Part shown: piece by piece, positions 1,446 to 12,510 of the stretch | Position numbering within the stretch: the stretch's first letter is position 1 | How the letters are laid out: every line of letters starts with the position of its first letter | Virus record (IMG/VR): IMGVR_UViG_3300002460_002611 | Reading direction: 5' to 3' (one strand) | DNA length: 12,710 bases | Origin: a virus | Notes under the pieces: generated by a model | What the model was told of the DNA's origin: nothing | The model's database searches: none | Seen by the model: only the letters and a program-made list of their open reading frames with translations | Translations under genes and position numbers: made by a program

Positions 1446-1580
1446 ATGTGTGAGTACGTGTACGCAGCATTATTTGCTGCATTCATGGTCGTGATGGTCG
1501 TCGTCGTGCTTGTGCTTGATGTTGTTGAGAGACGCGCAAAGAAGCGAAAGCAAAAGAAACAGGAGAACACGTGGATCTGA
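1446..1580 (+). CDS. Possible small membrane protein (44 aa), below the ORF-track length cutoff: a hydrophobic helix followed by a Lys/Arg-rich tail
   Basis: ATG at 1446, 6 nt after the upstream stop. Translation 'MCEYVYAALFAAFMVVMVVVVLVLDVVERRAKKRKQKKQENTWI*' is a single TM-like segment plus a basic C-terminus (positive-inside). It overlaps the next start (GTG 1571) by 10 nt. Confidence 0.3.
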   Translation: MCEYVYAALFAAFMVVMVVVVLVLDVVERRAKKRKQKKQENTWI

Positions 1581-1864
1581 ACGATGATATCGTCTTCACT
1601 GATGGACAGACGTGGCACCTGGGCGATTTGCTGGTCCTTAAAGCTCACTCAAGACGAAGTAATGTGATAGATGGACATCTTAGAGCTGTTTTGACTGATG
1701 AGCCACTCATTCTCTTGGGCTTCTCTGGAGTAGGAATATGTAGACAGGCACAGTTTATGTCAGCACGCTATGGCCTATGCTGGAGAAACGTCTGGCGAGA
1801 CTTTAGAGACAACGTATCGCTTGTTCAGAGGCTTGACATGAACCCTGGAGCGTTCCATGCTTAG
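1571..1864 (+). CDS. Member of the tandem small-protein paralog family (GDL / GHL / EPLIxLG / GxCWR motifs); GTG start
   Basis: 'GQTWHLGDLLVL...DGHLRAVLTDEPLILLGFSGV...FMSARYGLCWRNVW...VSLVQRLD'. An AGGAG lies 5 nt before the GTG. Confidence 0.7.
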   Translation: MDLNDDIVFTDGQTWHLGDLLVLKAHSRRSNVIDGHLRAVLTDEPLILLGFSGVGICRQAQFMSARYGLCWRNVWRDFRDNVSLVQRLDMNPGAFHA

Positions 1865-1981
1865 GATGGTGCTAAGGGCTGGAGATGCCTTGCTCCTTTC
1901 AGCTGGAAGGGCGATGCTGTGGTGTGCGTTATTCGTGGCCATGGCATGGGCAGAGATCGACGGCCCCAGGAGAGGTGACGA

Positions 1982-2248
1982 ATGATGGGCTTTAGGAACA
2001 GCAACCAGGATGCACGCATCCGCGTGAGGTCAGAGGGGGCGTCGATCGCCGTTGATACGGCATACAGGGACCCGGGGACGCTGCAGGCACGGGCCGATGT
2101 GCGTGAACGTTACGACGTTGAGACGGGGAGGTCATTGACGGGCCTGTCCGTCAGGACAGCAGGAGGCAGGAGCATCCGCTTCACGGGCTCCGAGGCTCGG
2201 ACGCTATATCGCATCCTGGATGAGGCCGTGAACGGTTCGAGGGTGTAA
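1982..2248 (+). CDS. Hypothetical protein (88 aa), no recognisable domain; not an obvious member of the paralog family
   Basis: A 'ggagaggtga' SD sits 4 nt before ATG 1982, and the coding-like composition is continuous with its neighbours. The protein is Arg-rich and shows no motif I recognise. Confidence 0.5.
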   Translation: MMGFRNSNQDARIRVRSEGASIAVDTAYRDPGTLQARADVRERYDVETGRSLTGLSVRTAGGRSIRFTGSEARTLYRILDEAVNGSRV

Positions 2249-2251
2249 CAC

Positions 2252-2518
2252 ATGAGGGCAGCAGAGCTGTGTCCGGGCGGCCTGTGTAGCAGCTCTGCTG
2301 TCTCTGTGATAGACTCACAGGGTAGAACCCATCTCTTCTCTGACGACAAACCGTTGTGGACAGCGTTGTTCATCAGACGTTATCACGTTAAGTGGGGGTT
2401 GGTCGGTCCGTATGAAGAGTTTCTGTTCATCTCGCCCCAACTCGGGGTGATGAAGGTGACCACAACAAGCCTGCAATATATCATGTTTGTCCAATCGCTA
2501 GACGATTGTGTGGAGTGA
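2252..2518 (+). CDS. Hypothetical protein, possibly a divergent member of the paralog family
   Basis: Starts 3 nt after the previous stop. The C-terminus 'YIMFVQSLDD' resembles the family tail 'LTLVSSLD / VSLVQRLD'. Weak 'PGGLCS', 'QGRTHL' and 'PLWTALFI' segments echo the GDL, GHL and EPLIFLG motifs. Confidence 0.45.
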   Translation: MRAAELCPGGLCSSSAVSVIDSQGRTHLFSDDKPLWTALFIRRYHVKWGLVGPYEEFLFISPQLGVMKVTTTSLQYIMFVQSLDDCVE

Positions 2519-2523
2519 ATGCA

Positions 2524-2832
2524 ATGCTGCTTGACCTCCCTTCTACGCTCATCCCAGGCGCCCTCTATGCCCTAGAGGGTGAGATTGGGCTCACAACAGA
2601 GACCACGCCCCGAGGAAGGTCTCAGCACTTGCTGTTACGTATTGGTGCGATACGTCATGCATCGGTAGGACAAGTGGAACCGCTGGTCTTTATCAAGACT
2701 ACGTTGGCTGGAAAGAACGCGCCAGGCATGTCAATGCACTGGTTCATGTCGAGGCTGGGTCCGTGCTACAGGAACACGCTCCCTACGAGCCTTTATCTCG
2801 TGCAGGAGGTCGCTGATGCCGACAGTGAATGA
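2524..2832 (+). CDS. Member of the paralog family. The ORF track starts at TTG 2506; ATG 2524 is preferred, with GGAG 8 nt upstream.
   Basis: 'LIPGALYAL...EPLVFIKT...FMSRLGPCYRN'. The 3' end overlaps the next gene's start. Confidence 0.65.
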   Translation: MLLDLPSTLIPGALYALEGEIGLTTETTPRGRSQHLLLRIGAIRHASVGQVEPLVFIKTTLAGKNAPGMSMHWFMSRLGPCYRNTLPTSLYLVQEVADADSE

Positions 2833-3898
2833 GATTGAGAGAAGGTTTCTTGTGAAGGAGATCGATCTCAAGCATCGTGCACTCAAGGACAACAACGTCT
2901 GGAACGGGTGTGAGGTCCATCTCACGCAGGGCTACCTTGACATCCCGGGCAGCATGCGCGTGAGGTCATACACGTTCAGGGGCACGGGCCTCCAGAGGCA
3001 TGAGCTGACGAGGAAGACGGGCAAGGGCCTCCTTCGGGTTGAGCAGAATGCAGACATCTCTGCCGAGGCTGCGCAGATGCTGCTGGGCTCGACGCCCTTC
3101 ACGATCAGCAAGACGCGCCGCATGTGTGATGGGTGGGAGGTTGACTTCTTCCACGGGCGGCTTGAGGGCCTCATCATGGCAGAGAAGGAGCTCCAGCATC
3201 CCGACGAGCCTTGTCCCATTCCGCCCTGGATAGCAGATGCTGTTGAGGTGACAGACTTCATCAGCAACAAACAGCTCGCCCGAGCCGCGTTCCTGCTGTC
3301 ATCTGATGAGCCTCTCTCTATCCTTGATGCGCGTCGTCTCAGGCGCGTGGTCCTGACGGGTGCACCGTGCTCGGGCAAGAGCGCGTTCGTGGAGCAGTTC
3401 AGGGGGACGCCTGGGTTCCATTGTGTGCCAGAGGTTGCGACGATTGTCATGGGGCAGCTCAATGTCATGCCCGAGTCAGGAGCAGCAAGCTTCCAGCGGA
3501 CGCTCTACCGCATGCAGCACCTGTTCGAGGACGCTGCTGAGGTCCAGGCCCAAAGGGACGGCAACGGGACAGTGGTCATCGACAGAGGGTCGCTCGATGG
3601 GGCCGCCTTCATGCCGGGAGGGCTGGATGAATACACAACCCTCGTTCAGACAGACGCTCTGTCGGAGCTCGGCAGGTATGACGCTGTCATCTTCCTCAGG
3701 CTGCCCCCGCGTGATGTGTGGGAGAGGAACAGGGCGAACAATGCAATCAGGCGTGAGACGTGGGAGCAGGCCCTCGTGCTTGAGGAGAGGCTGCTTGATG
3801 TGTGGTCCAGGCATCCCAACCTCATCGTTGTCGGAGGCAGGCCCACGTGGGAGGAGAGGTTCGCTGACATCATTGGACATGTCAGCTGCAGGTTGTAG
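2816..3898 (+). CDS. Two-domain enzyme: N-terminal CYTH / triphosphate-tunnel metalloenzyme domain fused to a C-terminal P-loop kinase of the NadR-AAA_28 / uridine-kinase-like type
   Basis: The N-terminus 'VNEIERRFLVKEID' is the ExExK CYTH signature (nt 2831-2854). Walker A 'VVLTGAPCSGKSAF' lies at nt ~3352-3390, followed by 'VPEVAT' and an 'IDRGSLDGAAF' region typical of NadR-type nucleoside kinases. AGGAGG sits 6 nt before ATG 2816. Confidence 0.8.
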   Translation: MPTVNEIERRFLVKEIDLKHRALKDNNVWNGCEVHLTQGYLDIPGSMRVRSYTFRGTGLQRHELTRKTGKGLLRVEQNADISAEAAQMLLGSTPFTISKTRRMCDGWEVDFFHGRLEGLIMAEKELQHPDEPCPIPPWIADAVEVTDFISNKQLARAAFLLSSDEPLSILDARRLRRVVLTGAPCSGKSAFVEQFRGTPGFHCVPEVATIVMGQLNVMPESGAASFQRTLYRMQHLFEDAAEVQAQRDGNGTVVIDRGSLDGAAFMPGGLDEYTTLVQTDALSELGRYDAVIFLRLPPRDVWERNRANNAIRRETWEQALVLEERLLDVWSRHPNLIVVGGRPTWEERFADIIGHVSCRL

Positions 3899-3907
3899 GA
3901 GCGTCAG

Positions 3908-4192
3908 ATGAATGAGAAGTTTGATGTGGGAGACCTTGTCGGCATAGTGGGTGTCAGCTACAACGGGCTGTCTGACGACGGACACCTCCTGAATGGAGGA
4001 TACTGCGATGTGGGTTGCCAGTGCGGCGCCTCGCCACCCGCACACCACATGCTTCTGCTATACATGGGCAGCGACTACAACTACAAGCATTTCGAATCTA
4101 TCCATTGGTTCCTGACGCAGACGGGGGAGCGCTGCTGGCGATACTCGACAGAGCACCTCATACTCGTGTCATCACATGATGGGATGCTATGA
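3908..4192 (+). CDS. Paralog family member, Cys-rich-insert subgroup
   Basis: 'FDVGDLVGIVGV...DGHLLNGGYCDVGCQCG...HHMLLLYMG...WFLTQTGERCWRY...LILVSSHD'. AGGAG lies 6 nt upstream, and the next gene starts by ATGA overlap. Confidence 0.75.
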   Translation: MNEKFDVGDLVGIVGVSYNGLSDDGHLLNGGYCDVGCQCGASPPAHHMLLLYMGSDYNYKHFESIHWFLTQTGERCWRYSTEHLILVSSHDGML

Positions 4193-4461
4193 CGTTGGGC
4201 TTGGGCGTAGAGATGCAGCCCGGTGACCTCGTGGGTCTCGCTGGCGTCAGGACAGTCTCATTGCAGACAGATGGGTGGTTGTCTAACTGTAAGATGTGTG
4301 TGGGATCGTGTGGATGCTGGTCGGGGCAGCCGCATGTGTGGTTGCTGTATCTGGAGCGTAAAGGATACTGTAATTACTTCCTGACATCTGCGGGCTCAAT
4401 CTGCTTCCGCTACGGAAGCAGGCGTGAGTATGTCGTGGTCTCCAGAGACAGGATATTGTGA
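4189..4461 (+). CDS. Paralog family member, Cys-rich-insert subgroup
   Basis: 'QPGDLVGLAGV...DGWLSNCKMCVGSCGCW...VWLLYLE...YFLTSAGSICFRYG'. ATGA overlaps at both ends. Confidence 0.75.
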   Translation: MTLGLGVEMQPGDLVGLAGVRTVSLQTDGWLSNCKMCVGSCGCWSGQPHVWLLYLERKGYCNYFLTSAGSICFRYGSRREYVVVSRDRIL

Positions 4462-4751
4462 TGACGAAAAGTGCTGCAGACATCAAGTCGGGAGACCTTG
4501 TGGGTGTGAGATCGGGGAGCATGTTTGAGCTGGACCCAGAAGGGCACCTGATGAATGGGTTCTGTTCAAGGGTTGGCTGCACGTGCCACCATGAAGAGGG
4601 TGGGGTGGTGCACATGCTGTTGCTCTACATGGGCCCTAGCACTCACATTGCCGATGTTTCGGGTCCAGTCCATACGTTCCTGATGCCGACAGGACAGGCA
4701 TGCTGGCGCTACGGATACAACAACCTGACGCTGGTCTCATCGTTGGACTAG
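4458..4751 (+). CDS. Paralog family member, Cys-rich-insert subgroup
   Basis: 'KSGDLVGVRSG...EGHLMNGFCSRVGCTCHH...VHMLLLYMG...FLMPTGQACWRYG...LTLVSSLD'. Confidence 0.75.
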   Translation: MMTKSAADIKSGDLVGVRSGSMFELDPEGHLMNGFCSRVGCTCHHEEGGVVHMLLLYMGPSTHIADVSGPVHTFLMPTGQACWRYGYNNLTLVSSLD

Positions 4752-4752
4752 G

Positions 4753-5148
4753 ATGTTCGCCCTTACTGGGACGCTACGTTACGACATCATGCTGGGCTAC
4801 GGACACAGGCTCGTCGTTGATGTTGAAAGGGACGTCGCGAGGTTCTATGCAGCATTGGTCCCAAGGAGCGTGGGCATCAGGTCGCAACGCTATGCGCCCC
4901 ATGTGACAGTCGTCAGGCTTGAGACGCCCAGCATGATGTCTGCATGGGGCATGAGGCAGGGCCAGCGTGTGAGCATGTGGTATGACCCGTACGTCTACAA
5001 CGACGAGAGGTATTACTGGCTTCGCGTGCACTCAGATGAGCTTCTTGACGTCAGGAAGGAGCTCGGGCTGCCATCATCGAGCAGGTTGAGCAGGCCGCCT
5101 GACGGCGTCGAGTGCTTCCACATGACGATAGGGAACACAAAGCCATGA
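4753..5148 (+). CDS. Small 2H-phosphoesterase-superfamily protein (LigT / cyclic phosphodiesterase / Acb1-like), 131 aa
   Basis: Two H-x-T-x motifs flanked by hydrophobics with typical spacing: 'APHVTVVRL' (His50, nt 4900-4902) and 'ECFHMTIGN' (His123, nt 5119-5121). It starts 2 nt after the upstream stop and ends in an ATGA overlap with the next gene. Confidence 0.7.
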   Translation: MFALTGTLRYDIMLGYGHRLVVDVERDVARFYAALVPRSVGIRSQRYAPHVTVVRLETPSMMSAWGMRQGQRVSMWYDPYVYNDERYYWLRVHSDELLDVRKELGLPSSSRLSRPPDGVECFHMTIGNTKP

Positions 5149-5477
5149 GCAAAAGAGAGAAGCTGAGGCTTGCGCAGCTGGTCCAGGGCGACCTGCTGCA
5201 GCTGCGTTGCTACGATGCATCACGACTAGAGATCGGTGACAACGAAGGTCACCTGTGCGGAGACATCTACGATCCTGAACGTCATGACCTCTTCGACGCC
5301 AAGCGCTTCGACAGGTGCACCGCACTCGTCCCGTTCATCTACCTGGGTCCTCATGATGTCAAGCATTCCAACACAGCAGCCAGGCTCCTGTCACCCACAC
5401 ACGGTGTCTGCTGGCGTTATGTGTGCCATGCCCTAGAGCTGGCGCAGCCCGTGTCAGCGTGTGAGGAGGACCAGTGA
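5145..5477 (+). CDS. Paralog family member. The ORF track start is GTG 5112; ATG 5145 is preferred because it forms an ATGA overlap with the 2H gene stop.
   Basis: 'LVQGDLLQL...EGHLCGD...VPFIYLGP...LLSPTHGVCWRYV'. Confidence 0.7.
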   Translation: MSKREKLRLAQLVQGDLLQLRCYDASRLEIGDNEGHLCGDIYDPERHDLFDAKRFDRCTALVPFIYLGPHDVKHSNTAARLLSPTHGVCWRYVCHALELAQPVSACEEDQ

Positions 5478-5478
5478 C

Positions 5479-5802
5479 ATGCATATGAATGAGCTACACA
5501 ACTACAAGAGCCCGACGGGTGAGGTCTGGAACGCGGGTGACCTGTGTGCGCTCACGATCACTGGCCCATTTTCTCTACGTGTAGAAGTTGAATACGTGAC
5601 CCAGGGTCACCTTATCGGGGCCACTGGTGGCTTGGATGAGCCCCTCATCTTCTTGGGTGTGTCATACAACGATGACTACAGCCGCTTGATCGCGTATCTC
5701 TTGTCTTTTAGGTTCGGTGCGTGTTGGAGGTTTGTGTGGTCCGACCAGACGGGTGGGTTGAAGCGTGTCCAGCAGCTGCAGCCTGATGTGTCGTCGCAGT
5801 GA
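5479..5802 (+). CDS. Paralog family member. The track start is GTG 5461; ATG 5479 is preferred, with AGGAGGA 8 nt upstream and 2 nt after the upstream stop.
   Basis: 'GEVWNAGDLCAL...QGHLIGATGGLDEPLIFLGV...LLSFRFGACWRFVW'. Confidence 0.7.
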   Translation: MHMNELHNYKSPTGEVWNAGDLCALTITGPFSLRVEVEYVTQGHLIGATGGLDEPLIFLGVSYNDDYSRLIAYLLSFRFGACWRFVWSDQTGGLKRVQQLQPDVSSQ

Positions 5803-5825
5803 GTGAAGGCCGAGGAGAACGTAAC

Positions 5826-6131
5826 ATGGACAGCCTCATATGCAACGGAGAGACATGGGCGGTCGGTGACATGTGCAGCTATGATGGTAGAAATGCCTTA
5901 GGCCAGTTTTGCATCGACCAACACAACAGCTGGTATCCCAACCACCTGCTAGGCAGGCCTGCTATCCCAGAGCCCCTCATCCTCATGGCGATAGAGCGGC
6001 ATGAGATACTCACGGCTGCACACGTCGTGTGGTTCATGTCTGTGACGTTCGGGCTGTGTTGGCGCTTGGTGTGGCCGGATGATGCAGACGATGTCGTGCT
6101 ATGTCAGAAGCAGTCTGAGACTGCACCATGA
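5826..6131 (+). CDS. Paralog family member. The track start is GTG 5799; ATG 5826 is preferred, with GAGGAG 8 nt upstream.
   Basis: 'GETWAVGDMCSY...NHLLGRPAIPEPLILMAI...WFMSVTFGLCWRLVW'. Confidence 0.7.
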   Translation: MDSLICNGETWAVGDMCSYDGRNALGQFCIDQHNSWYPNHLLGRPAIPEPLILMAIERHEILTAAHVVWFMSVTFGLCWRLVWPDDADDVVLCQKQSETAP

Positions 6132-6463
6132 TGGTGCCCAGGCTTGAACAGTTCCTGCAATCACGTGATGAGACGTGGCATGCAGGCGACCTGTGCGCGT
6201 TTGTGGAAGTGCACGGTGTGGACCTCACGCCGTATGTGGATGAAGAAGGTCACCTCCTTGGCAGTCCTATTGAGCCCATGCCCCTCATCTTTCTGGGCGT
6301 CTGTTGGTCAGAGAACAGAGAATACAGGAAGGTATGGTTCATATCGCCCGTGCACGGTCCCTGCTATAGAATCATCAATGACGCATCAAGGGGTCGGGTG
6401 CATCATGTGAGTCGGGCGCAGACGATCGCTAGCGTCACAAGGAGCATGCATCATGACACATGA
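6128..6463 (+). CDS. Paralog family member (ATGA overlap with the upstream gene)
   Basis: 'DETWHAGDLCAF...EGHLLGSPIEPMPLIFLGV...WFISPVHGPCYRI'. Confidence 0.7.
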   Translation: MMVPRLEQFLQSRDETWHAGDLCAFVEVHGVDLTPYVDEEGHLLGSPIEPMPLIFLGVCWSENREYRKVWFISPVHGPCYRIINDASRGRVHHVSRAQTIASVTRSMHHDT

Positions 6464-6710
6464 TATGCCTCTTCCGGGCGACCTGCTTATGTTCGCCACG
6501 AGCAATTGGTCAGTGCCTGACATGAGGCCCAACGGTTTCCTCTATGCCCGCCATACGTTGACATCGAACAATCAGCTAGCTGATTGCTTTGAGCCAGTCA
6601 TGATGCTATGTGACGAGGAGACGACGGGTCGCGTTCACCTGCTATCTGCTAGGTTTGGTCTGTGCTGGTGGTGGCGAGATTGGCTATTGTATCGTCATGT
6701 CGGCGCCTAG
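6453..6710 (+). CDS. Paralog family member (11-nt overlap with the upstream gene; alternative ATG at 6465)
   Basis: 'LPGDLLMF...NGFLYAR...EPVMMLCDEE...HLLSARFGLCWWW'. AAGGAG lies 8 nt before ATG 6453. Confidence 0.65.
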   Translation: MTHDMPLPGDLLMFATSNWSVPDMRPNGFLYARHTLTSNNQLADCFEPVMMLCDEETTGRVHLLSARFGLCWWWRDWLLYRHVGA

Positions 6711-6740
6711 CCTGGCTCATTGGGGTGCAGCCACTTAGAG

Positions 6741-6762
6741 CAGCTGGTGACAGCTGGTGACA
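6741..6762. repeat. Perfect tandem duplication of the 10-mer 'cagctggtga' (2 copies plus 'ca') in the only sizeable intergenic gap inside the paralog array
   Basis: 'cagctggtgacagctggtgaca' read directly from the sequence; it lies just upstream of, or overlapping, the start of the 6757/6766 gene. Confidence 0.6.
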
Positions 6763-6765
6763 TAC

Positions 6766-7083
6766 ATGGGTGATAAGCTACAGCCGGGTGCCCTGCTTGC
6801 GTTAGTCATGAAGCCTGGGTTCATGCCCGCTGCGACAGATGACGGGCAGCTGTATGCACAGGGGCTCATAGGTCTAGCTGCGCCGTGGTTGCAGAGGCAC
6901 GTTGAGCCTATGATCCTGCTTGGCCGTGAGCTGATCCAGTCGCGTGTATCTTATAAGCTCATGCTGCTGTCAGCTAGTCTAGGCCCATGCTGGTGTTGGA
7001 ACTTGGTATTGAGTGATGATGACATATTTTCATGTCGCCTCATCGTGGTGAGAGCCCATCCAGGTGGAGCAACTAATGGATGA
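6766..7083 (+). CDS. Paralog family member (the track start is GTG 6757; ATG 6766 is equally plausible)
   Basis: 'QPGALLAL...DGQLYAQ...EPMILLGREL...LLSASLGPCWCWN'. Confidence 0.65.
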   Translation: MGDKLQPGALLALVMKPGFMPAATDDGQLYAQGLIGLAAPWLQRHVEPMILLGRELIQSRVSYKLMLLSASLGPCWCWNLVLSDDDIFSCRLIVVRAHPGGATNG

Positions 7084-7336
7084 CATCAACCTGGATGGCT
7101 GCATCATTGAGGCGGGCGACCTTCTGGCGTTCAATGCTCCCGCGTGTGTGGAGGACGACCAGCTCCTGCATGATACTTCTTTTGGTGTGTATGTGACAGA
7201 GCTGCTTATCTACGTGGGCGCTGAGAGGTTCCCAGGAAAACCAGACTCGAGGTTCTGGTTCCTGTCCATCAGGTTCGGCCTGTGCTTCAAATGGACGAAC
7301 AGCTACCTGACGTTGGTGCAGCGAAGGGGATGGTGA
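7076..7336 (+). CDS. Paralog family member. The track start is GTG 7064; ATG 7076 is preferred, with GGTGGAG 6 nt upstream.
   Basis: 'IEAGDLLAF...DDQLLHD...ELLIYVGAER...WFLSIRFGLCFKW...YLTLVQRRGW'. Confidence 0.7.
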   Translation: MDDINLDGCIIEAGDLLAFNAPACVEDDQLLHDTSFGVYVTELLIYVGAERFPGKPDSRFWFLSIRFGLCFKWTNSYLTLVQRRGW

Positions 7337-7445
7337 TGCACTAGACATAGAAGCATGAGCATGATGTAATCTGCATGAATTTAGAGTGAAACATCTGGGC
7401 ATGTCCTATTAGGATGATGCCACCATCGGTTTTAACCCAAGGAGG

Positions 7446-10097
7446 ATGGAATTGAGCGACAATCGAACACAGAACGAACTTGTTCTCTCGCCAGGTGAAT
7501 TTGCATTGAGCCAGGACACCACATCAGGCATCCTGAAGTGCATCACAGGCCCTGGGATTTTGCAAATTACTGGGCAGGAAACGCCCGTAGCGTTTGACCC
7601 AAAGACGGGTCGCTTTGCTCGCTGTGATCTGGCTACAGCTGTCCAGCAGTTTGCGCTTGCGAAGCAGGGCCAATATATGGTCCTTTCAAATCCGGCGCAG
7701 AACGGAAAGCAACCTGTCGTCAAGGAGAAGAGCGCAGCCGCTGAGCTCAACATGGGTCAGAAGGTCAACATCCAGGGACCCATCACGTTTGCACTGTGGC
7801 CCGGCCAGAGCGCGACAGTGATTGAGGGCCACAACCTCAGGTCGAACCAATACCTTCGTATCCGTGTCTACGATGAGGATGCTGCTCGTGAGAACTGGAC
7901 GAAGGGTGTCGTGAAGGCTGCGCAGATCGCCGGTGGCGCGTCTGATGATGCTGACGCTGGAAAGGGAAAGGCGCAGACAAAGGGACACACTCAAAAGGGC
8001 CTCTTTGAGGCAGTGCCTGGTGACCTTGCTGTGGGTAAGCACTACATCGTTCGAGGCGATGAGTTCTCGTTCTACATCCCGCCGACAGGCGTCGAGGTCG
8101 TCACGGATGACAACGGGTCCTACGTTCGTGATGCCACCACCCTTGAGCGCCTTGAGTATTGCATCCTGATCGATGAGAACGGGAGCAAGCGCTACGAGCA
8201 GGGACCTAAGGTCGTCTTTCCGACGCCGACGGAGAGGTTCTTCGAGGAGCAGGAGAAGGGGCAGCGCATCTGCTCGTTCAAGCCCATTGAGCTGAATGAG
8301 ATACAGGGACTACACGTCAAGGTCATCTCTGACTACGCTGAGGCTGACGGGACCCAGCGGAAGGAGGGTGAGGAGCTCTTCATCAGGGGGTCTGAGACGC
8401 CCATCTACTTTCCGCGGCCTGAGCATGCTCCTGTGAAGTATGATGGGAAGTTCAAGCACTTCGCCACGGCTGTCCCGGCGGGTGAGGCTCGCTACGTCCT
8501 GGAGAGGAAGACGGGCGCGATCAGGACCGTCAAGGGACCCTGCATGCTACTTCCTGACCCTCGGACCGAGGTGATCGTCAGGCGTGTCCTCAGCGACAAG
8601 CAGTGCAACCTGTGGTATCCTGGCAACCTGGAGGCGCAGCGTTACAACTCAACGTTGCGTGAGCTGATGCGTGTCACGCCCACGACGAGGCCCTCCGGGA
8701 CCGTCTCTGAGGGAGAGGTGACGAGGTCGAAGAAGGTCAAGCAGAGCACGTACGGGAACGTCTCTGGGTTCGCCGACAGCAGCCTCATCAGCTCTGACAG
8801 CGCGCTCTTTGGAACCGACGAGTTCAGCAGGGGCAGCACCTACACTGAGCCTAGGACCGTCACGCTTGACACCAAGTTCGGGGGCGTGCCCACGATCGAG
8901 GTCTGGACGGGATACGCTGTCCTCATCATCGACAAGCAGGGGAACAGGCGCGTTGAGATCGGGCCCAAGACAATTCAGCTTGAGTACGATGAGCAGCTCG
9001 AGGTCCTGTCGATGAGCACGGGCAAGCCGAAGAACACGGACCAGCTTGTGCAGACGGTCTACCTGCGCGTAAAGAACAACCAGATCGGTGATGTTGTGAC
9101 GGCTGAGACGCGGGACCATGTCAACGTCTCCTTCAAGGTCTCCCTCAGGGGTGACTTTACGGATGAGCCAGGGCGCTGGTTTGAGTGTGAGAACTACGTC
9201 AAGCTGGTGTGCGACCACGTCAGGTCGGTCCTCAAGGCCGAGGTCAGGAAGCTGAAGGTGGAGGAGATATACAGCGACCCGACGTCGATCGTGAGGGACG
9301 CCATCCTGGGTGCTCGCGGTGGTGAGGACGTCTCACGACGGGGCATGCTGTTCGATGAGAACGGGTTCCACATCCTCGATGTTGAGGTCCTCGACTTCAA
9401 GGTGGGCGATGACCGCATCGCACAGATGCTTGACAACACTCAGCACAGTGTGGTTGAGTCAAACATCAGCCTTGCCCTGGCGGAGAAGAAGCTTGAGATC
9501 GACAGGCGACAGGAGGAGATCGACAGGGAGCGCGTCCAGCTCAAGACTGAGACTGAGCGCCTCAATGCGACGACGAAGGCTGACCTCGATAGGTTCAACG
9601 TGGACCTTGAGACCGAGAGGGTTGCTCGCCACCTGAAGCTGTCGTTGGACCGCATCTCGTCGCAGATCGACGAGACGACGAAGAGGGAGGAGATGCAGGC
9701 CGTTGAGCAACGCCTCCTTGATGAGAAGCAGGGGGCTGAGCTGGCGCGGCAGAAGAAGGACGCTGACGTCAGGAGCAGCATCGACCGCGTCATCCAGGAG
9801 CTGGAGCTCGCCCGGTCACGGGAGGAGACTGAGCACGTCATCCAGAGGTTCCAGGCTGCCAACGGACCCCTCGCAGAGGCGCTGCTGGCCCTGGGCAACC
9901 AGGACACGGTCGTCAAGCTCGCTGAGGCCCTGAGCGTCCAGAGCTTCATCGGGGGCAAGACGGTCGTCGATGTGGTGCAGAAGGTCTTCGCTGGATCGCC
10001 CGCAGCGGGTCTCGTTGAAAAGGCGCTGCAACGGGCGCTCCCTGCCTCCGTCGAGGCGAACGGAGCATCGGGAGGCACCAAGCGGGCTTCTGCGTAG
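7446..10097 (+). CDS. MVP: Major vault protein (MVP) homologue, full length (883 aa): N-terminal MVP repeats, SPFH-like shoulder, long cap-helix coiled coil and cap-ring region
   Basis: Length and architecture match eukaryotic MVP (~890 aa). Collinear motif matches to human MVP as I recall it: 'LEVLSMSTGKPK' vs 'FTVLSLSAGRPK'; 'VVTAETRDHV' vs 'VITIETADHA'; N-terminal 'LSPGEFALSQDTTSGILKCITGPGILQITGQE' vs '[31 protein letters not shown]'; shoulder 'FHILDVEVLDFKVGDDRIAQMLDNTQHSVVESN' vs '[33 protein letters not shown]'. This is followed by a charged heptad-like region, 'LAEKKLEIDRRQEEIDRERVQLKTETERL...', in the cap-helix position. AAGGAGG precedes the start (ATG 7446, or TTG 7452 with better spacing). 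Confidence 0.85.
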   Translation: MELSDNRTQNELVLSPGEFALSQDTTSGILKCITGPGILQITGQETPVAFDPKTGRFARCDLATAVQQFALAKQGQYMVLSNPAQNGKQPVVKEKSAAAELNMGQKVNIQGPITFALWPGQSATVIEGHNLRSNQYLRIRVYDEDAARENWTKGVVKAAQIAGGASDDADAGKGKAQTKGHTQKGLFEAVPGDLAVGKHYIVRGDEFSFYIPPTGVEVVTDDNGSYVRDATTLERLEYCILIDENGSKRYEQGPKVVFPTPTERFFEEQEKGQRICSFKPIELNEIQGLHVKVISDYAEADGTQRKEGEELFIRGSETPIYFPRPEHAPVKYDGKFKHFATAVPAGEARYVLERKTGAIRTVKGPCMLLPDPRTEVIVRRVLSDKQCNLWYPGNLEAQRYNSTLRELMRVTPTTRPSGTVSEGEVTRSKKVKQSTYGNVSGFADSSLISSDSALFGTDEFSRGSTYTEPRTVTLDTKFGGVPTIEVWTGYAVLIIDKQGNRRVEIGPKTIQLEYDEQLEVLSMSTGKPKNTDQLVQTVYLRVKNNQIGDVVTAETRDHVNVSFKVSLRGDFTDEPGRWFECENYVKLVCDHVRSVLKAEVRKLKVEEIYSDPTSIVRDAILGARGGEDVSRRGMLFDENGFHILDVEVLDFKVGDDRIAQMLDNTQHSVVESNISLALAEKKLEIDRRQEEIDRERVQLKTETERLNATTKADLDRFNVDLETERVARHLKLSLDRISSQIDETTKREEMQAVEQRLLDEKQGAELARQKKDADVRSSIDRVIQELELARSREETEHVIQRFQAANGPLAEALLALGNQDTVVKLAEALSVQSFIGGKTVVDVVQKVFAGSPAAGLVEKALQRALPASVEANGASGGTKRASA

Positions 10098-10222: not shown

Positions 10223-10567
10223 ATGGGACTAAACGTGGGAGATGCTGTGCGGCCTGTCGTGGCCCTTGAGCTGAGGGAGCTTGAGGACGTCTACGGAAAG
10301 GCATTCAACCAGGCCATCCCAGGACGCTCAAAGAAGAACGTGACACGTGATGGTCACACGTTCCTTGACGGCTACCTGGGCATCTACCTCGGACCCAAGT
10401 ATCGTCAGATGCGTGACAGGCGGGGCGATGCGGGCTGGGTGCACAGGCTATTCCACTGCTTTCTGTTCGGGGGCGTGGAGGTGATGATAGATCCGCAGCA
10501 CATAGAGCTCGTAGCTGTCGAGCAGGCAGAGACAAGCGCAGACGATCCAACCGACGAGGAGGACTGA
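10223..10567 (+). CDS. Hypothetical protein (114 aa), acidic C-terminus; possibly a very divergent relative of the paralog family
   Basis: N-terminal 'GLNVGDAV' resembles the 'LNVGDLL' start of the truncated family member at 12513. 'DGHTFLDGYLGIYLGPKY' loosely echoes the GHL / LIFLG motifs. It ends in a TGATG overlap with the next gene. Confidence 0.5.
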   Translation: MGLNVGDAVRPVVALELRELEDVYGKAFNQAIPGRSKKNVTRDGHTFLDGYLGIYLGPKYRQMRDRRGDAGWVHRLFHCFLFGGVEVMIDPQHIELVAVEQAETSADDPTDEED

Positions 10568-11397
10568 TGACGATCGACATTGAGGCCGTTCCCTACAGGA
10601 CAACGCTTGACCAGATCGATGTGCCCGATGCGCTGAAGAGGCGCTATGCCTTCCACTCAGACCACGACAGGCGTCTCATGTTCGTCACGAGCCTGTTTGG
10701 CGGGCAGGGCATTGCACCATCGACAGTCACGCTGTTGACGGGCAACCCGGGCGCCGGAAAGAGCACCCTTGCTGTCCAGATGGCACAGGCATTGCATGCA
10801 CGAAGCGACTGCCTGGTCCTGTTCAACGGGCTGGAGGAGAGCCTGCACCAGACGCGCATTGTCGCTGACCGACTGTTCAGGAACTCCACACCCCCATTCT
10901 TCGTCGGGACAGACACGCTCGTGACGAGCCGGAACCCAAAGATGAACGGGCGCGTGCAGGCTGAGACGAAGTCGGGAAAGCGTCGCGCTGTGCTGGACCA
11001 CGTCCAGGTCCTTGCTGCTGCGCATCCGAACAGACAGCCCATCCTGATCGTGGACTCGCTGCAGTGCCTCGATGATGGACACTATCCCGATGGGTTTATC
11101 AACAGGTCCAGCACCCTGCGTGCATTGAAGCTCGTCAGGAGCTTCTGCAAGCAGACGTACGCGGCTGCCATCCTGATCGGGCAGGTTACCAAGAGCGGGG
11201 ATCCCGCTGGAGACAACAAACTAATTCACAACATCGACGTTCATATCCACCTGGGCATCGACACCAAAGAAAAGTCAGAGACCCAGGGCATGCGGATAGC
11301 GACGACCAGAAAGAACCGTTTTGGAGTTGCAGGGCAAACACATATCTGCAACATGTGGCCAACAGGTCTGGTCGAAGAGAACTCGTTGGTTACGTAG
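10567..11397 (+). CDS. RadA/Sms-like RecA-superfamily ATPase, core ATPase domain only (no N-terminal zinc finger or C-terminal Lon-like domain)
   Basis: Walker A 'LLTGNPGAGKSTLAVQMA' (nt ~10735-10790); 'LFNGLEES' EES motif of the KaiC/RadA clade; Walker B 'PILIVDSLQ'; 'IGQVTKSGDPAGDNKLIHNIDVHIHL' aligns with RadA 'GHVTKEGxIAGPxxLEHxVD'; hallmark RadA/Sms 'KNRFG' at nt 11311-11325. Confidence 0.8.
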   Translation: MTIDIEAVPYRTTLDQIDVPDALKRRYAFHSDHDRRLMFVTSLFGGQGIAPSTVTLLTGNPGAGKSTLAVQMAQALHARSDCLVLFNGLEESLHQTRIVADRLFRNSTPPFFVGTDTLVTSRNPKMNGRVQAETKSGKRRAVLDHVQVLAAAHPNRQPILIVDSLQCLDDGHYPDGFINRSSTLRALKLVRSFCKQTYAAAILIGQVTKSGDPAGDNKLIHNIDVHIHLGIDTKEKSETQGMRIATTRKNRFGVAGQTHICNMWPTGLVEENSLVT

Positions 11398-12304
11398 GGC
11401 AAATCTCTTACGCACATTTCTGCATCAAGCGGCATAGTTATGATGCATGAAAAGAAAAGGTCGTTCTGACCAAAGGAAGTATCACTTCACATACAAGACA
11501 ACATGCCTTGTAACAGGAAAGTACTACTACGGCATGCATAGCACAGACAAGATGGACGATGACTATCTGGGTTCAGGACAGATCCTTCGCTACTCAGTGA
11601 AGAAATACGGACCTGAGAATCACGTACGTGAGGTGTTACAGCTGTTCTCTGATAGAGCATCGCTCATCCAAGGTGAGAAGGAGCTTGTGACAGAGAGTGT
11701 GGCTGCAGGACCCATGTGTATGAACATGTGCGCAGGAGGTGCGACATCAAGGGGTGGTCCTCGACAGAAGAGACCCTACAAGCCTAGGGGACCCATGCCC
11801 GAGGAGACGAGGCTTAAAATATCACTATCGAATATGGGAAAGAAGCACAGCAAAGCCACGAGACGAAAGATGTCGAAGGCCAAGCTGGGAAAGACGTGGA
11901 CTTGGAACAAACCGATGTCAGATGAGCAGAAGAAGCAGATATCGGATACGTTGAAGGGCAAGAAGCTCTCTCCCTGGAACAAGGGGATAAAGATGGGTCC
12001 TCTATCTGATGAACAAAAGCAGAAACTTTCAATGTCCTTGAAGGGAAAAAACAAGGGCAAGAAGATGTCTGACGCGCAGAAAGAGCTTCTACGCCAGATC
12101 AATCTAGGAAAGAAGCACACTGCGGAAGCTAAGGCTAGGATGTCAGCTTCAAAAAAAGGGAAGAAAAAACCACCTCGCTCAGCTGAGCATTGTAAGAACA
12201 TGTCTGAGGCGCATAAGGGAAAAGTCCTATCAGAAGAACATAAGCGAAACATCAGTGAAGGTATGAAGATAGCCTGTGCTAAAAAGAAACAAGAGAGTAA
12301 GTGA
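11398..12304 (+). mobile_element. Probable homing-endonuclease gene insertion (compositionally distinct cassette) between the RadA-like gene and a paralog-family gene
   Basis: The AT-rich 49-nt leader (11398-11446) and the HEG ORF have a codon and GC profile clearly different from the flanks (many AAA/AAG/AGA/ATA codons), typical of a laterally mobile HEG. Confidence 0.6.
11447..12304 (+). CDS. GIY-YIG homing endonuclease with C-terminal array of NUMOD3 DNA-binding repeats (free-standing HEG)
   Basis: N-terminal 'KYHFTYKTTCLVTGKYYYGMHSTDKMDDDYLGSGQILRYSVKKYGPENHVREVLQLFSDRASLIQGEKELV' matches the GIY...YIG / conserved-Glu layout of T4 Seg / I-TevI-like enzymes. The C-terminal half has at least 6 reiterations of 'S/HxEQKxKIS.xxKGKK' (NUMOD3). 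GC content is markedly lower than in neighbouring genes. Confidence 0.85.
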   Translation: MKRKGRSDQRKYHFTYKTTCLVTGKYYYGMHSTDKMDDDYLGSGQILRYSVKKYGPENHVREVLQLFSDRASLIQGEKELVTESVAAGPMCMNMCAGGATSRGGPRQKRPYKPRGPMPEETRLKISLSNMGKKHSKATRRKMSKAKLGKTWTWNKPMSDEQKKQISDTLKGKKLSPWNKGIKMGPLSDEQKQKLSMSLKGKNKGKKMSDAQKELLRQINLGKKHTAEAKARMSASKKGKKKPPRSAEHCKNMSEAHKGKVLSEEHKRNISEGMKIACAKKKQESK

Positions 12305-12510
12305 CATCGCAGCTTAAATTGCGCCAGGTGCGCACGGGTGACCTCATTGAGATCGTCGAGGGTAGGCCTGAGTTGGTCCTGTCTGATTGCCTGACGAGTT
12401 CAGACAATTACATGCATGTCCTGTGGGGTGACGGCACACAGAGGACCTGGTATACAAGCGAGATCGTGTGTCGTCGCATCCTTGCCCGTGCTGAGGACAT
12501 GGAGCCTTGA
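12301..12510 (+). CDS. Hypothetical small protein (69 aa), start uncertain (GTG 12301 / TTG 12319 / GTG 12328); KOW/SH3-like N-terminal 'TGDLIEIVEG' motif
   Basis: Starts overlapping the HEG stop. 'VRTGDLIEIVEGRPELVLSD' resembles the N-terminal motif of the paralog family but lacks the C-terminal CWR motif. Confidence 0.45.
   Translation: MTSQLKLRQVRTGDLIEIVEGRPELVLSDCLTSSDNYMHVLWGDGTQRTWYTSEIVCRRILARAEDMEP

Follow-up and report, generated by a model that had tools for sequence, protein, structure and literature searches.

The gene at 4753..5148 (+ strand) of the IMG/VR virus record IMGVR_UViG_3300002460_002611 encodes a protein of 131 amino acids (aa), which is very probably an active 2H phosphoesterase and would, judging by its motifs and its modeled fold, act on a cyclic phosphodiester of a nucleotide or of RNA. 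The whole stretch of 12,710 nucleotides which was analyzed is referred to as the window, the protein and its family are called mini-2H, and the loci compared carry L numbers. The kind of enzyme is known; new is its form, which is minimal, virus-restricted, uncharacterized and, as far as the alignments tell, permuted. An active 2H enzyme is supported by the invariance of the catalytic motifs, the predicted 2H fold and purifying selection on the gene. A first-pass annotation of the same DNA had already assigned the protein to the 2H phosphoesterases. This assignment is borne out well by motif conservation, the predicted fold and weak Pfam 2H matches, but the circular permutation of the family relative to canonical 2H enzymes had not been foreseen.

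Motif 1 of the protein, H50-V-T-V-V-R55 (4900..4917, +), has the signature H-h-[ST]-h-h-R. Motif 2, H123-M-T-I-G-N-T-K130 (5119..5142, +), is located at the extreme C-terminus and has the signature F-H-x-T-h-[GA]-N-x-K. The codons of H50-V-T-V are found at 4900-4911 and those of H123-M-T-I at 5119-5130. The two H-x-T motifs at His50 and His123, on which the first-pass annotation was built, were confirmed to belong to a real gene of a conserved family. Taken by itself, the motif pair is only a lead, because such pairs are not rare by chance in proteins of this size: at least two H-x-S/T motifs were present in 6.7% of 2132 open frames from related loci and at least two of the stricter H-h-[ST]-h motifs in 0.4% of the same frames. 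Public assemblies contain copies of the gene with 98% and 80% identity. The latter is located on a syntenic 44-kb contig (L002), and its ratio of non-synonymous to synonymous substitution rates (dN/dS) against the gene of the window is 0.13; mini-2H is under strong purifying selection. The next gene, a member of a paralog array described below, probably begins at an ATG (5145) which overlaps the TGA stop codon (5146-5148). This ATGA overlap (5145..5148, +) suggests translational coupling inside one long co-directional unit. Neither a promoter-like excess nor a terminator-like site was detected in the region 3800-7500 of the window, and the gene is assigned to a long co-directional unit because of the overlap together with the lack of a terminator-like site in the surrounding array.

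In total, 23 homologues with 38-98% identity were found. A profile of these homologues matched 1115 cluster representatives (clusters at 50% identity) at E ≤ 1e-3 among 1.84 billion proteins, and nearly all of the best 150 of these representatives are stand-alone proteins of approximately 110-230 aa. Conservation was counted over 174 family sequences which are at most 50% identical. H50 and S/T52 are present in 174/174 and R55 in 173/174, while H123 and T/S125 are present in 172/172. Y77, Y87, W89 and R101 are each kept in at least 170 of the 174 sequences (Y87 in 170), K130 in 164 and N128 in 162; position 47 is Tyr in 125.

The family is essentially virus-restricted and is mostly located on contigs of large or jumbo phages. 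In PHROGs it corresponds to phrog_12204, labeled ‘unknown function’. Annotated phage records with the family are genomes of 337-497 kb only, plus one record of 86 kb and one metagenomic phage of 595 kb. Isolates among them infect Klebsiella (phages RaK2, K64-1 and relatives), Salmonella (Munch, 7t3, SE_PL), E. coli (ph0011, CMSTMSU) and other hosts (Sinorhizobium phage Phosso, Ralstonia phage RsoM2USA, Vibrio phage 2.275.O and Bacillus phage G). IMG/VR contains at least 60 mini-2H loci, many on contigs of 200-460 kb, and the single match in 185,579 species genomes is on a 65-kb contig of an Actinomycetes metagenome-assembled genome. With the whole window as megablast query, no match was obtained in 50,697 phage records, and searches of NCBIfam and PADLOC with the 2H protein gave none either. 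The copies in annotated phages are all labeled ‘hypothetical protein’ except one ‘RNA ligase’, that of Phosso (L159 4884-5366). T4 57B, i.e., Acb1 (L008 1953-2411), is labeled likewise in RefSeq. The label appears to be derived from the old name ‘2'-5' RNA ligase’ of the LigT family and is misleading. In one contig, two paralogous mini-2H genes are found about 2 kb apart (L057 1730-2128 and 3869-4297), and the same arrangement is present in L058 and L061; the gene pair of L057 points to a duplication within the genome.

An AlphaFold2 model built on the alignment reached a pLDDT of 94.2 and a pTM of 0.87. The order of elements in the model is E E H E(H50) E E H E(H123), i.e., two predicted beta-beta-alpha-beta(HxT) units. 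Features by which the 2H superfamily is recognized are found in the family: two H-x-T/S motifs with hydrophobic flanks are conserved throughout, and the model has a bilobed alpha+beta fold with the motifs on central beta-strands and likeness to solved 2H enzymes. Usb1, AKAP18, rotavirus VP3 and ASCC1 were among the entries listed for the model. From the equivalence of the folds, H50 and H123 would be juxtaposed across the cleft. The Foldseek comparison proposed in the first-pass annotation gave no significant match in the PDB, with 2H entries among the weak matches only; this may reflect the permuted order of the elements. Searches of the protein and its profile against PDB sequences with phmmer and hmmsearch returned chance-level matches only (thioredoxin, TrmK).

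The nearest Pfam family is 2H-SAK (PF22547), which is said to be the 2H domain of the ‘Swiss Army Knife’ RNA-repair proteins of Burroughs and Aravind, 2016. At E ≤ 0.1 it was matched by 22 of 24 family members; among the 150 representatives, 10 attained about the gathering score, a level which no other Pfam family attained. LigT-type models matched more weakly: 2_5_RNA_ligase2 had an E-value of 0.059 for the protein of the window and 3e-5 at best in the family, and LigT_PEase had 2.3e-4 at best. The gathering score together with the canonical element order of the ThpR/LigT families (PF02834, PF13563) was not found in the protein. The signature H-x-T-x-x-R of these families with its conserved Arg is present, and R55 aligns with the Arg of ThpR H125-I-T-L-L-R130. 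At E ≤ 0.1, the Acb1 model (PF23474) matched no member, neither the 24 in native order nor the 32 re-permuted ones; its positive control, T4 gp57B, was matched at 2.7e-60. Hence, the Acb1 candidacy put forward in the first-pass annotation does not hold in the sense of the Pfam-defined family. On sequence grounds, the protein is classed as a remote homologue of both Acb1 and ThpR and as a member of neither family.

The halves of the protein appear to be arranged in swapped order compared to Acb1 and ThpR. By sequence, motif 1 of mini-2H is the counterpart of motif 2 of Acb1 (H113) and ThpR (H125), and motif 2 that of motif 1 of Acb1 (H44). Profiles were compared by local hhalign using a family alignment of 171 sequences and an Acb1 alignment of 15 sequences. 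Family positions 80-130 were aligned to Acb1 5-51 with motif 2 on H44 (32%, E 5e-4) and positions 2-83 to Acb1 65-141 with motif 1 on H113 (5%, E 8e-3). ThpR was crossed likewise (family 16-94 to ThpR 70-173 and 98-130 to ThpR 15-50; hhalign 12%), with beta4-beta5 of the family matching the C-terminal strands of ThpR. Collinear homology to Acb1 across both motifs was not found in native order, which gave local cross-order alignments only. After re-permutation of the family alignment (residues 72-131 followed by 1-71), a single alignment of 107 columns to T4 Acb1 5-129 was obtained which includes both motifs (86.9%, E 4.2e-6). This result held wherever the cut was placed between residues 61 and 83, and twenty column-shuffled alignments used as controls reached 1.2% at maximum. 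When an alignment of 24 sequences was compared to T4 Acb1 or ThpR as single sequences, hhalign gave approximately 5% each; the -glob mode was misleading.

Thus, the alignments indicate that the family, which has an internally pseudo-symmetric fold, is probably a circular permutation of the canonical 2H arrangement. Loop 78-86 would join what are the N- and C-terminus in canonical enzymes, and the new termini would be located in the former inter-lobe linker. The swapped order of the halves would account for the absence of a C-terminal lid segment of the Acb1 type. Y12 of Acb1, a base-stacking residue, aligns with Y87 and Y110 aligns with Y47; the counterpart of W74 is ambiguous, with Y10 one position off. 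No counterparts of the Acb1 lid (145-152, W147), E141 or F107 were found in the aligned mini-2H sequences, and for the lid and E141 the reason is that the chain of 131 aa ends 8 residues after H123. In Acb1, these parts touch the bound nucleotide through lid closure, stacking and a base-specific contact, E141 contacting adenine N6 (Hobbs et al.).

As the role of mini-2H, we tentatively favor the healing of RNA or tRNA termini bearing 2',3'-cyclic phosphates during infection, a reading drawn from the family-wide gene context, the known chemistry of the superfamily and 2H-SAK as the nearest Pfam family. Host metal-independent ribonucleases would leave 2',3'-cyclic phosphate ends on tRNA or other RNA, which mini-2H would open to a 2'- or 3'-monophosphate. 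Other phage enzymes, such as a phosphatase or the cyclic-phosphate-processing receiver domain (cREC, PF20274), a CCA-adding enzyme and an RNA ligase, would finish the repair, and translation could go on during infection. In the window, the 2H gene would take part in this from a co-directional block with a vault-like scaffold of the major-vault-protein type (MVP), a CYTH-kinase fusion and a RadA-like ATPase.

Clustering of the 2H proteins at 85% identity left 54 distinct loci. A CCA-adding tRNA nucleotidyltransferase is found at a distance of ≤ 3 kb in 9/54 loci, frequently on the same strand and directly upstream of mini-2H; as read from the loci, these nine fall into about four lineages. cREC is near mini-2H in six loci, often adjacent and in the order CCA-cREC-2H. 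Among the nearest 150 open reading frames (ORFs), Pfam matches were to PolyA_pol, the CCA enzyme (6), cREC (3), HNH (3) and one each to Thg1, RlaP, RNA ligase, Glu/Gln-tRNA synthetase, PARG, EF-Ts and RNase H. In RaK2, the CCA enzyme is located 1.6 kb from mini-2H. In Salmonella phage Munch, an RNA ligase is found 2 kb upstream, a DUF2828/DUF7788 gene one gene upstream and the CCA enzyme 3.6 kb downstream. In phage G, a cluster of tRNA genes is located 8 kb upstream, and 2.7 kb downstream a macro domain is encoded. According to Iyer et al., components of jumbo-phage RNA repair are 2H, cREC, CCA enzyme, RlaP, Thg1 and ROT/TROVE (PMC7824862). Taken over the 54 loci, the context leans toward tRNA or RNA repair. 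The complete gene order in Munch (L158 1626-9995) is RNA ligase, small ORF, DUF2828/DUF7788, small ORF and mini-2H, later followed by a ribosome-associated inhibitor, the CCA enzyme and a NUDIX gene; its DUF2828/DUF7788 protein belongs to the same family which is found upstream of MVP in other phages.

Compared to known enzymes of this chemistry, mini-2H differs from the RNA 2',3'-cyclic phosphodiesterases of the ThpR/LigT type (E. coli ThpR; D. radiodurans CPDase 5H7F) in being virus-restricted, whereas those are cellular. Besides the crossed motifs, the protein of the window is about 45 residues shorter than ThpR. 2H-SAK and mini-2H share a second H-x-T near the C-terminal end of the domain and an association with RNA repair; in contrast to 2H-SAK, mini-2H is stand-alone, with no fusion or link to SAK-type HAD phosphatases in the loci examined. 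For cREC, a function of the same kind in jumbo phages is predicted, but it has an unrelated receiver fold with Asp-based chemistry and is an analogue or partner of mini-2H, not a homologue.

Several observations weigh against a role in RNA repair. A recognizable RNA-repair neighbor is present in only about one third of the 54 loci, the remaining two thirds being uninformative, and ligase, RlaP and calcineurin neighbors are rare near the 2H gene. Within the 12.7-kb window, neither an RNA ligase nor a CCA enzyme, a kinase of the polynucleotide kinase type or a tRNA gene was found, and MVP genes share their locus with mini-2H in only 4 of 85 MVP loci. The match of the protein to 2H-SAK (20.5 bits, E 5.9e-4) is below the Pfam gathering cut-off of 27 bits and covers model positions 84-120 of 124 only, i.e., the C-terminal third. 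The best profile partner after re-permutation is Acb1 (87%) and not ThpR (12%), although the ThpR profile is too poor in diversity for a fair comparison with Acb1, all of its listed matches being at least 73% identical. Repair enzymes are not alone in having a tRNA-related context, because T4 acb1 itself is located 1.4 kb from a tRNA cluster. cREC has been proposed to act also on cyclic ADP-ribose-type signals (PMC7824862). Finally, gp116 of phage G, a member of the same PHROG, has been annotated as Acb1 from HHpred, with no experiment (PMC12484599).

Rather unlikely, but next in rank, is an anti-defense function: mini-2H could be a circularly permuted Acb1 relative which has no lid and cleaves cyclic di- or trinucleotides, or other cyclic oligonucleotides by which CBASS or type III CRISPR systems signal, so that their effectors would not be activated. 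Like Acb1 (T4 gp57B, Erwinia phage FBB1; PDB 7T26/7T27), mini-2H is small, stand-alone and confined to phages, and the spacing of the two His is similar (73 residues versus 69 in T4 Acb1). The re-permuted profile alignment with its low shuffled controls, the HHpred call of gp116, the near-invariant Y87 in place of Y12 and the mostly Tyr position 47 in place of Y110 also fit such an activity. Matches to Acb1 by HHpred-type searches are, however, expected for any 2H protein. The Pfam model of Acb1 recognizes no member in either order, Acb1 is longer (152 aa), apparently has its halves in the other order and possesses a lid (W147), E141 and F107 of its own. The genomic settings differ as well, since T4 acb1 belongs to a 57A-57B-ipI block, whereas the setting of the mini-2H family is that of tRNA and RNA repair. 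The first-pass annotation had suggested looking for other anti-defense loci nearby; no known anti-defense gene was found among the neighbors of the family loci, and tRNA or RNA-repair genes recur there instead. Both roles which that annotation had named, RNA cyclic phosphodiesterase and Acb1-like enzyme, are still the leading explanations, but the data do not separate them decisively.

It is improbable that the substrate is derived from NAD, i.e., that mini-2H acts on ADP-ribose 1'',2''-cyclic phosphate (Appr>p) resulting from 2'-phosphate removal of the KptA/Tpt1 type, or on a cyclic ADP-ribose-type signal, with macro, NADAR, Nudix and PARG proteins as partners. Such neighbors do occur: NAMPT, NMNAT-Nudix and an ADP-ribosylglycohydrolase near mini-2H in L003, the macro domain in phage G, Nudix in RaK2 and Munch, PARG, and NADAR beside the 2H gene in L072. 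Furthermore, cREC is associated with NAD-processing systems (PMC7824862), the kinase upstream of the 2H gene is NadR-like and, in eukaryotic vaults, NAD+/ADP-ribose is bound by the MVP shoulder. However, KptA/Tpt1 or an ADP-ribosyltransferase was seen next to the 2H gene in no locus, the NAD-related neighbors are single occurrences each and common in jumbo phages anyway, and the strongest recurrent neighbor is an enzyme with tRNA as its substrate, the CCA-adding enzyme. Least of all to be expected is a non-enzymatic or otherwise unrelated protein, for instance one which binds nucleotides or RNA (sponge) and retains the 2H scaffold, or one which serves the paralog array as a structural accessory: although unrelated small paralogs surround the gene and many loci have no functional context, an invariant catalytic tetrad plus R55 across the 174 sequences would be unexpected after loss of catalysis, and the purifying selection is strong.

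The MVP homologue in the window also bears on RNA repair as the favored role. It is full-length, comprises 883 aa (7446..10097, +), starts 2.3 kb downstream of the 2H gene and matches MVP_shoulder at 1e-18 and Vault_3 at 2e-10; MVP entries of the PDB match its residues 491-848 at 6.7e-19. The distance between MVP and mini-2H is 0.6-2.3 kb in four loci, which represent three lineages (the window and L002; L009; L036). A general functional link between the two was rejected, given the 4/85 loci and given that LR756500 and LR756501 have MVP with no 2H gene within 17-20 kb. These two metagenomic huge phages of 462 kb (L074) and 735 kb (L073) are the only phages of the annotated collection with an MVP homologue; in L074, a cREC gene is located 11 kb upstream of MVP. 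Relatives of MVP were found in at least 151 IMG/VR loci, and the 85 analyzed form 51 clusters at 80% identity. Conserved neighbors over these clusters are a calcineurin-like phosphoesterase, DUF2828/DUF7788 plus vWA, RlaP, an AAA_33 kinase, NADAR, cREC and RNA ligase, and cREC is found 0.3-1.6 kb downstream of MVP in 18 of the 85 loci. The 2H gene of the window holds the MVP-proximal position which cREC or calcineurin-like phosphoesterases hold in other phages. Since it takes the place of other enzymes processing cyclic phosphates or phosphates near MVP, this fits a replacement of one enzyme type by another within an RNA-repair island. Phage and bacterial MVPs have been reported in two preprints; a term search of the two texts gave no neighborhood- or repair-related words.

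Phage 2H enzymes are at present read either as RNA repair enzymes or as anti-CBASS enzymes of the Acb1 type, and members of the family carry the labels ‘Acb1’ or ‘RNA ligase’ from automated or HHpred-based annotation, without a test. PHROG 12204 is a separate branch with no Acb1 lid, a probably permuted topology and a context leaning toward tRNA repair, which calls for caution in transferring the Acb1 label. It is conceivable, though doubtful, that this unrecognized, permuted and lid-less 2H branch, which comprises more than 1000 clusters at 50% identity almost exclusively from large phages, represents either a new class of immune-signal-degrading enzymes missed by Acb1 models or the cyclic-phosphate-opening step of RNA repair around a vault-like MVP scaffold. 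If a pathway around such a scaffold exists, 2H, cREC and calcineurin-type enzymes would be able to replace one another there as partners of MVP. The link of mini-2H to a phage MVP homologue which has RNA-repair genes as neighbors in other phages could also be relevant to the old question of the function of vault-type particles.

The remaining genes of the window are all located on the + strand. A fusion of a CYTH (triphosphate-tunnel) domain and a NadR-like AAA_28 P-loop kinase is encoded at 2816..3898 (AAA_28 4.1e-21; CYTH 2.9e-4), the CYTH half being like PDB 3typ and 2fbl. Among 86 MVP loci, the fusion was found in the window and L002 only. In the first-pass annotation, this kinase, three genes upstream of the 2H gene, was compared to the kinase-cyclic phosphodiesterase arrangement of yeast Trl1. 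This argument is weak and a Trl1-like pairing was set aside, given that the kinase is NadR-like, fused to CYTH and found with the 2H gene in these two loci only. A P-loop ATPase like RadA/KaiC is encoded at 10567..11397 (KaiC-type 6.6e-9; TIGR00416 RadA 1.6e-20, below cut-off). Its homologue on a distant 309-kb contig (L036 3801-4565; 7.7e-46) is located beside MVP and 2H; the joint occurrence of the ATPase, MVP and mini-2H in the window, L002 and L036 hints at a three-gene association.

About 16 paralogs of 70-114 aa (12 clear, 4 divergent) form an array at 1571..7336, 10223-10567 and 12301-12510, with the CYTH-kinase and 2H genes lying between its members. They share the pattern GDL...(D)GHL...EPxIxLG...FLSxxxGxCWR, and a hidden Markov model finds at least 13 more copies in L002. 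No match to Pfam, PHROG or PADLOC was obtained for the proteins of the array, and no tRNA, Rfam family or terminator was detected in the 12.7-kb window. The gene at 34-1440 encodes a DUF2201_N putative metallopeptidase with a DUF2201/CoxE-type vWA domain (PHROG 1314); the label ‘HNH endonuclease’ of this PHROG looks wrong for the protein, and the homologue in L002 is about 55 residues longer at its N-terminus. The product of 11447-12304 is a homing endonuclease of the GIY-YIG type which contains five NUMOD3 repeats (PHROG 314, E 6e-46), and related endonucleases recur near MVP in L094, L098, L099, L108 and L112.

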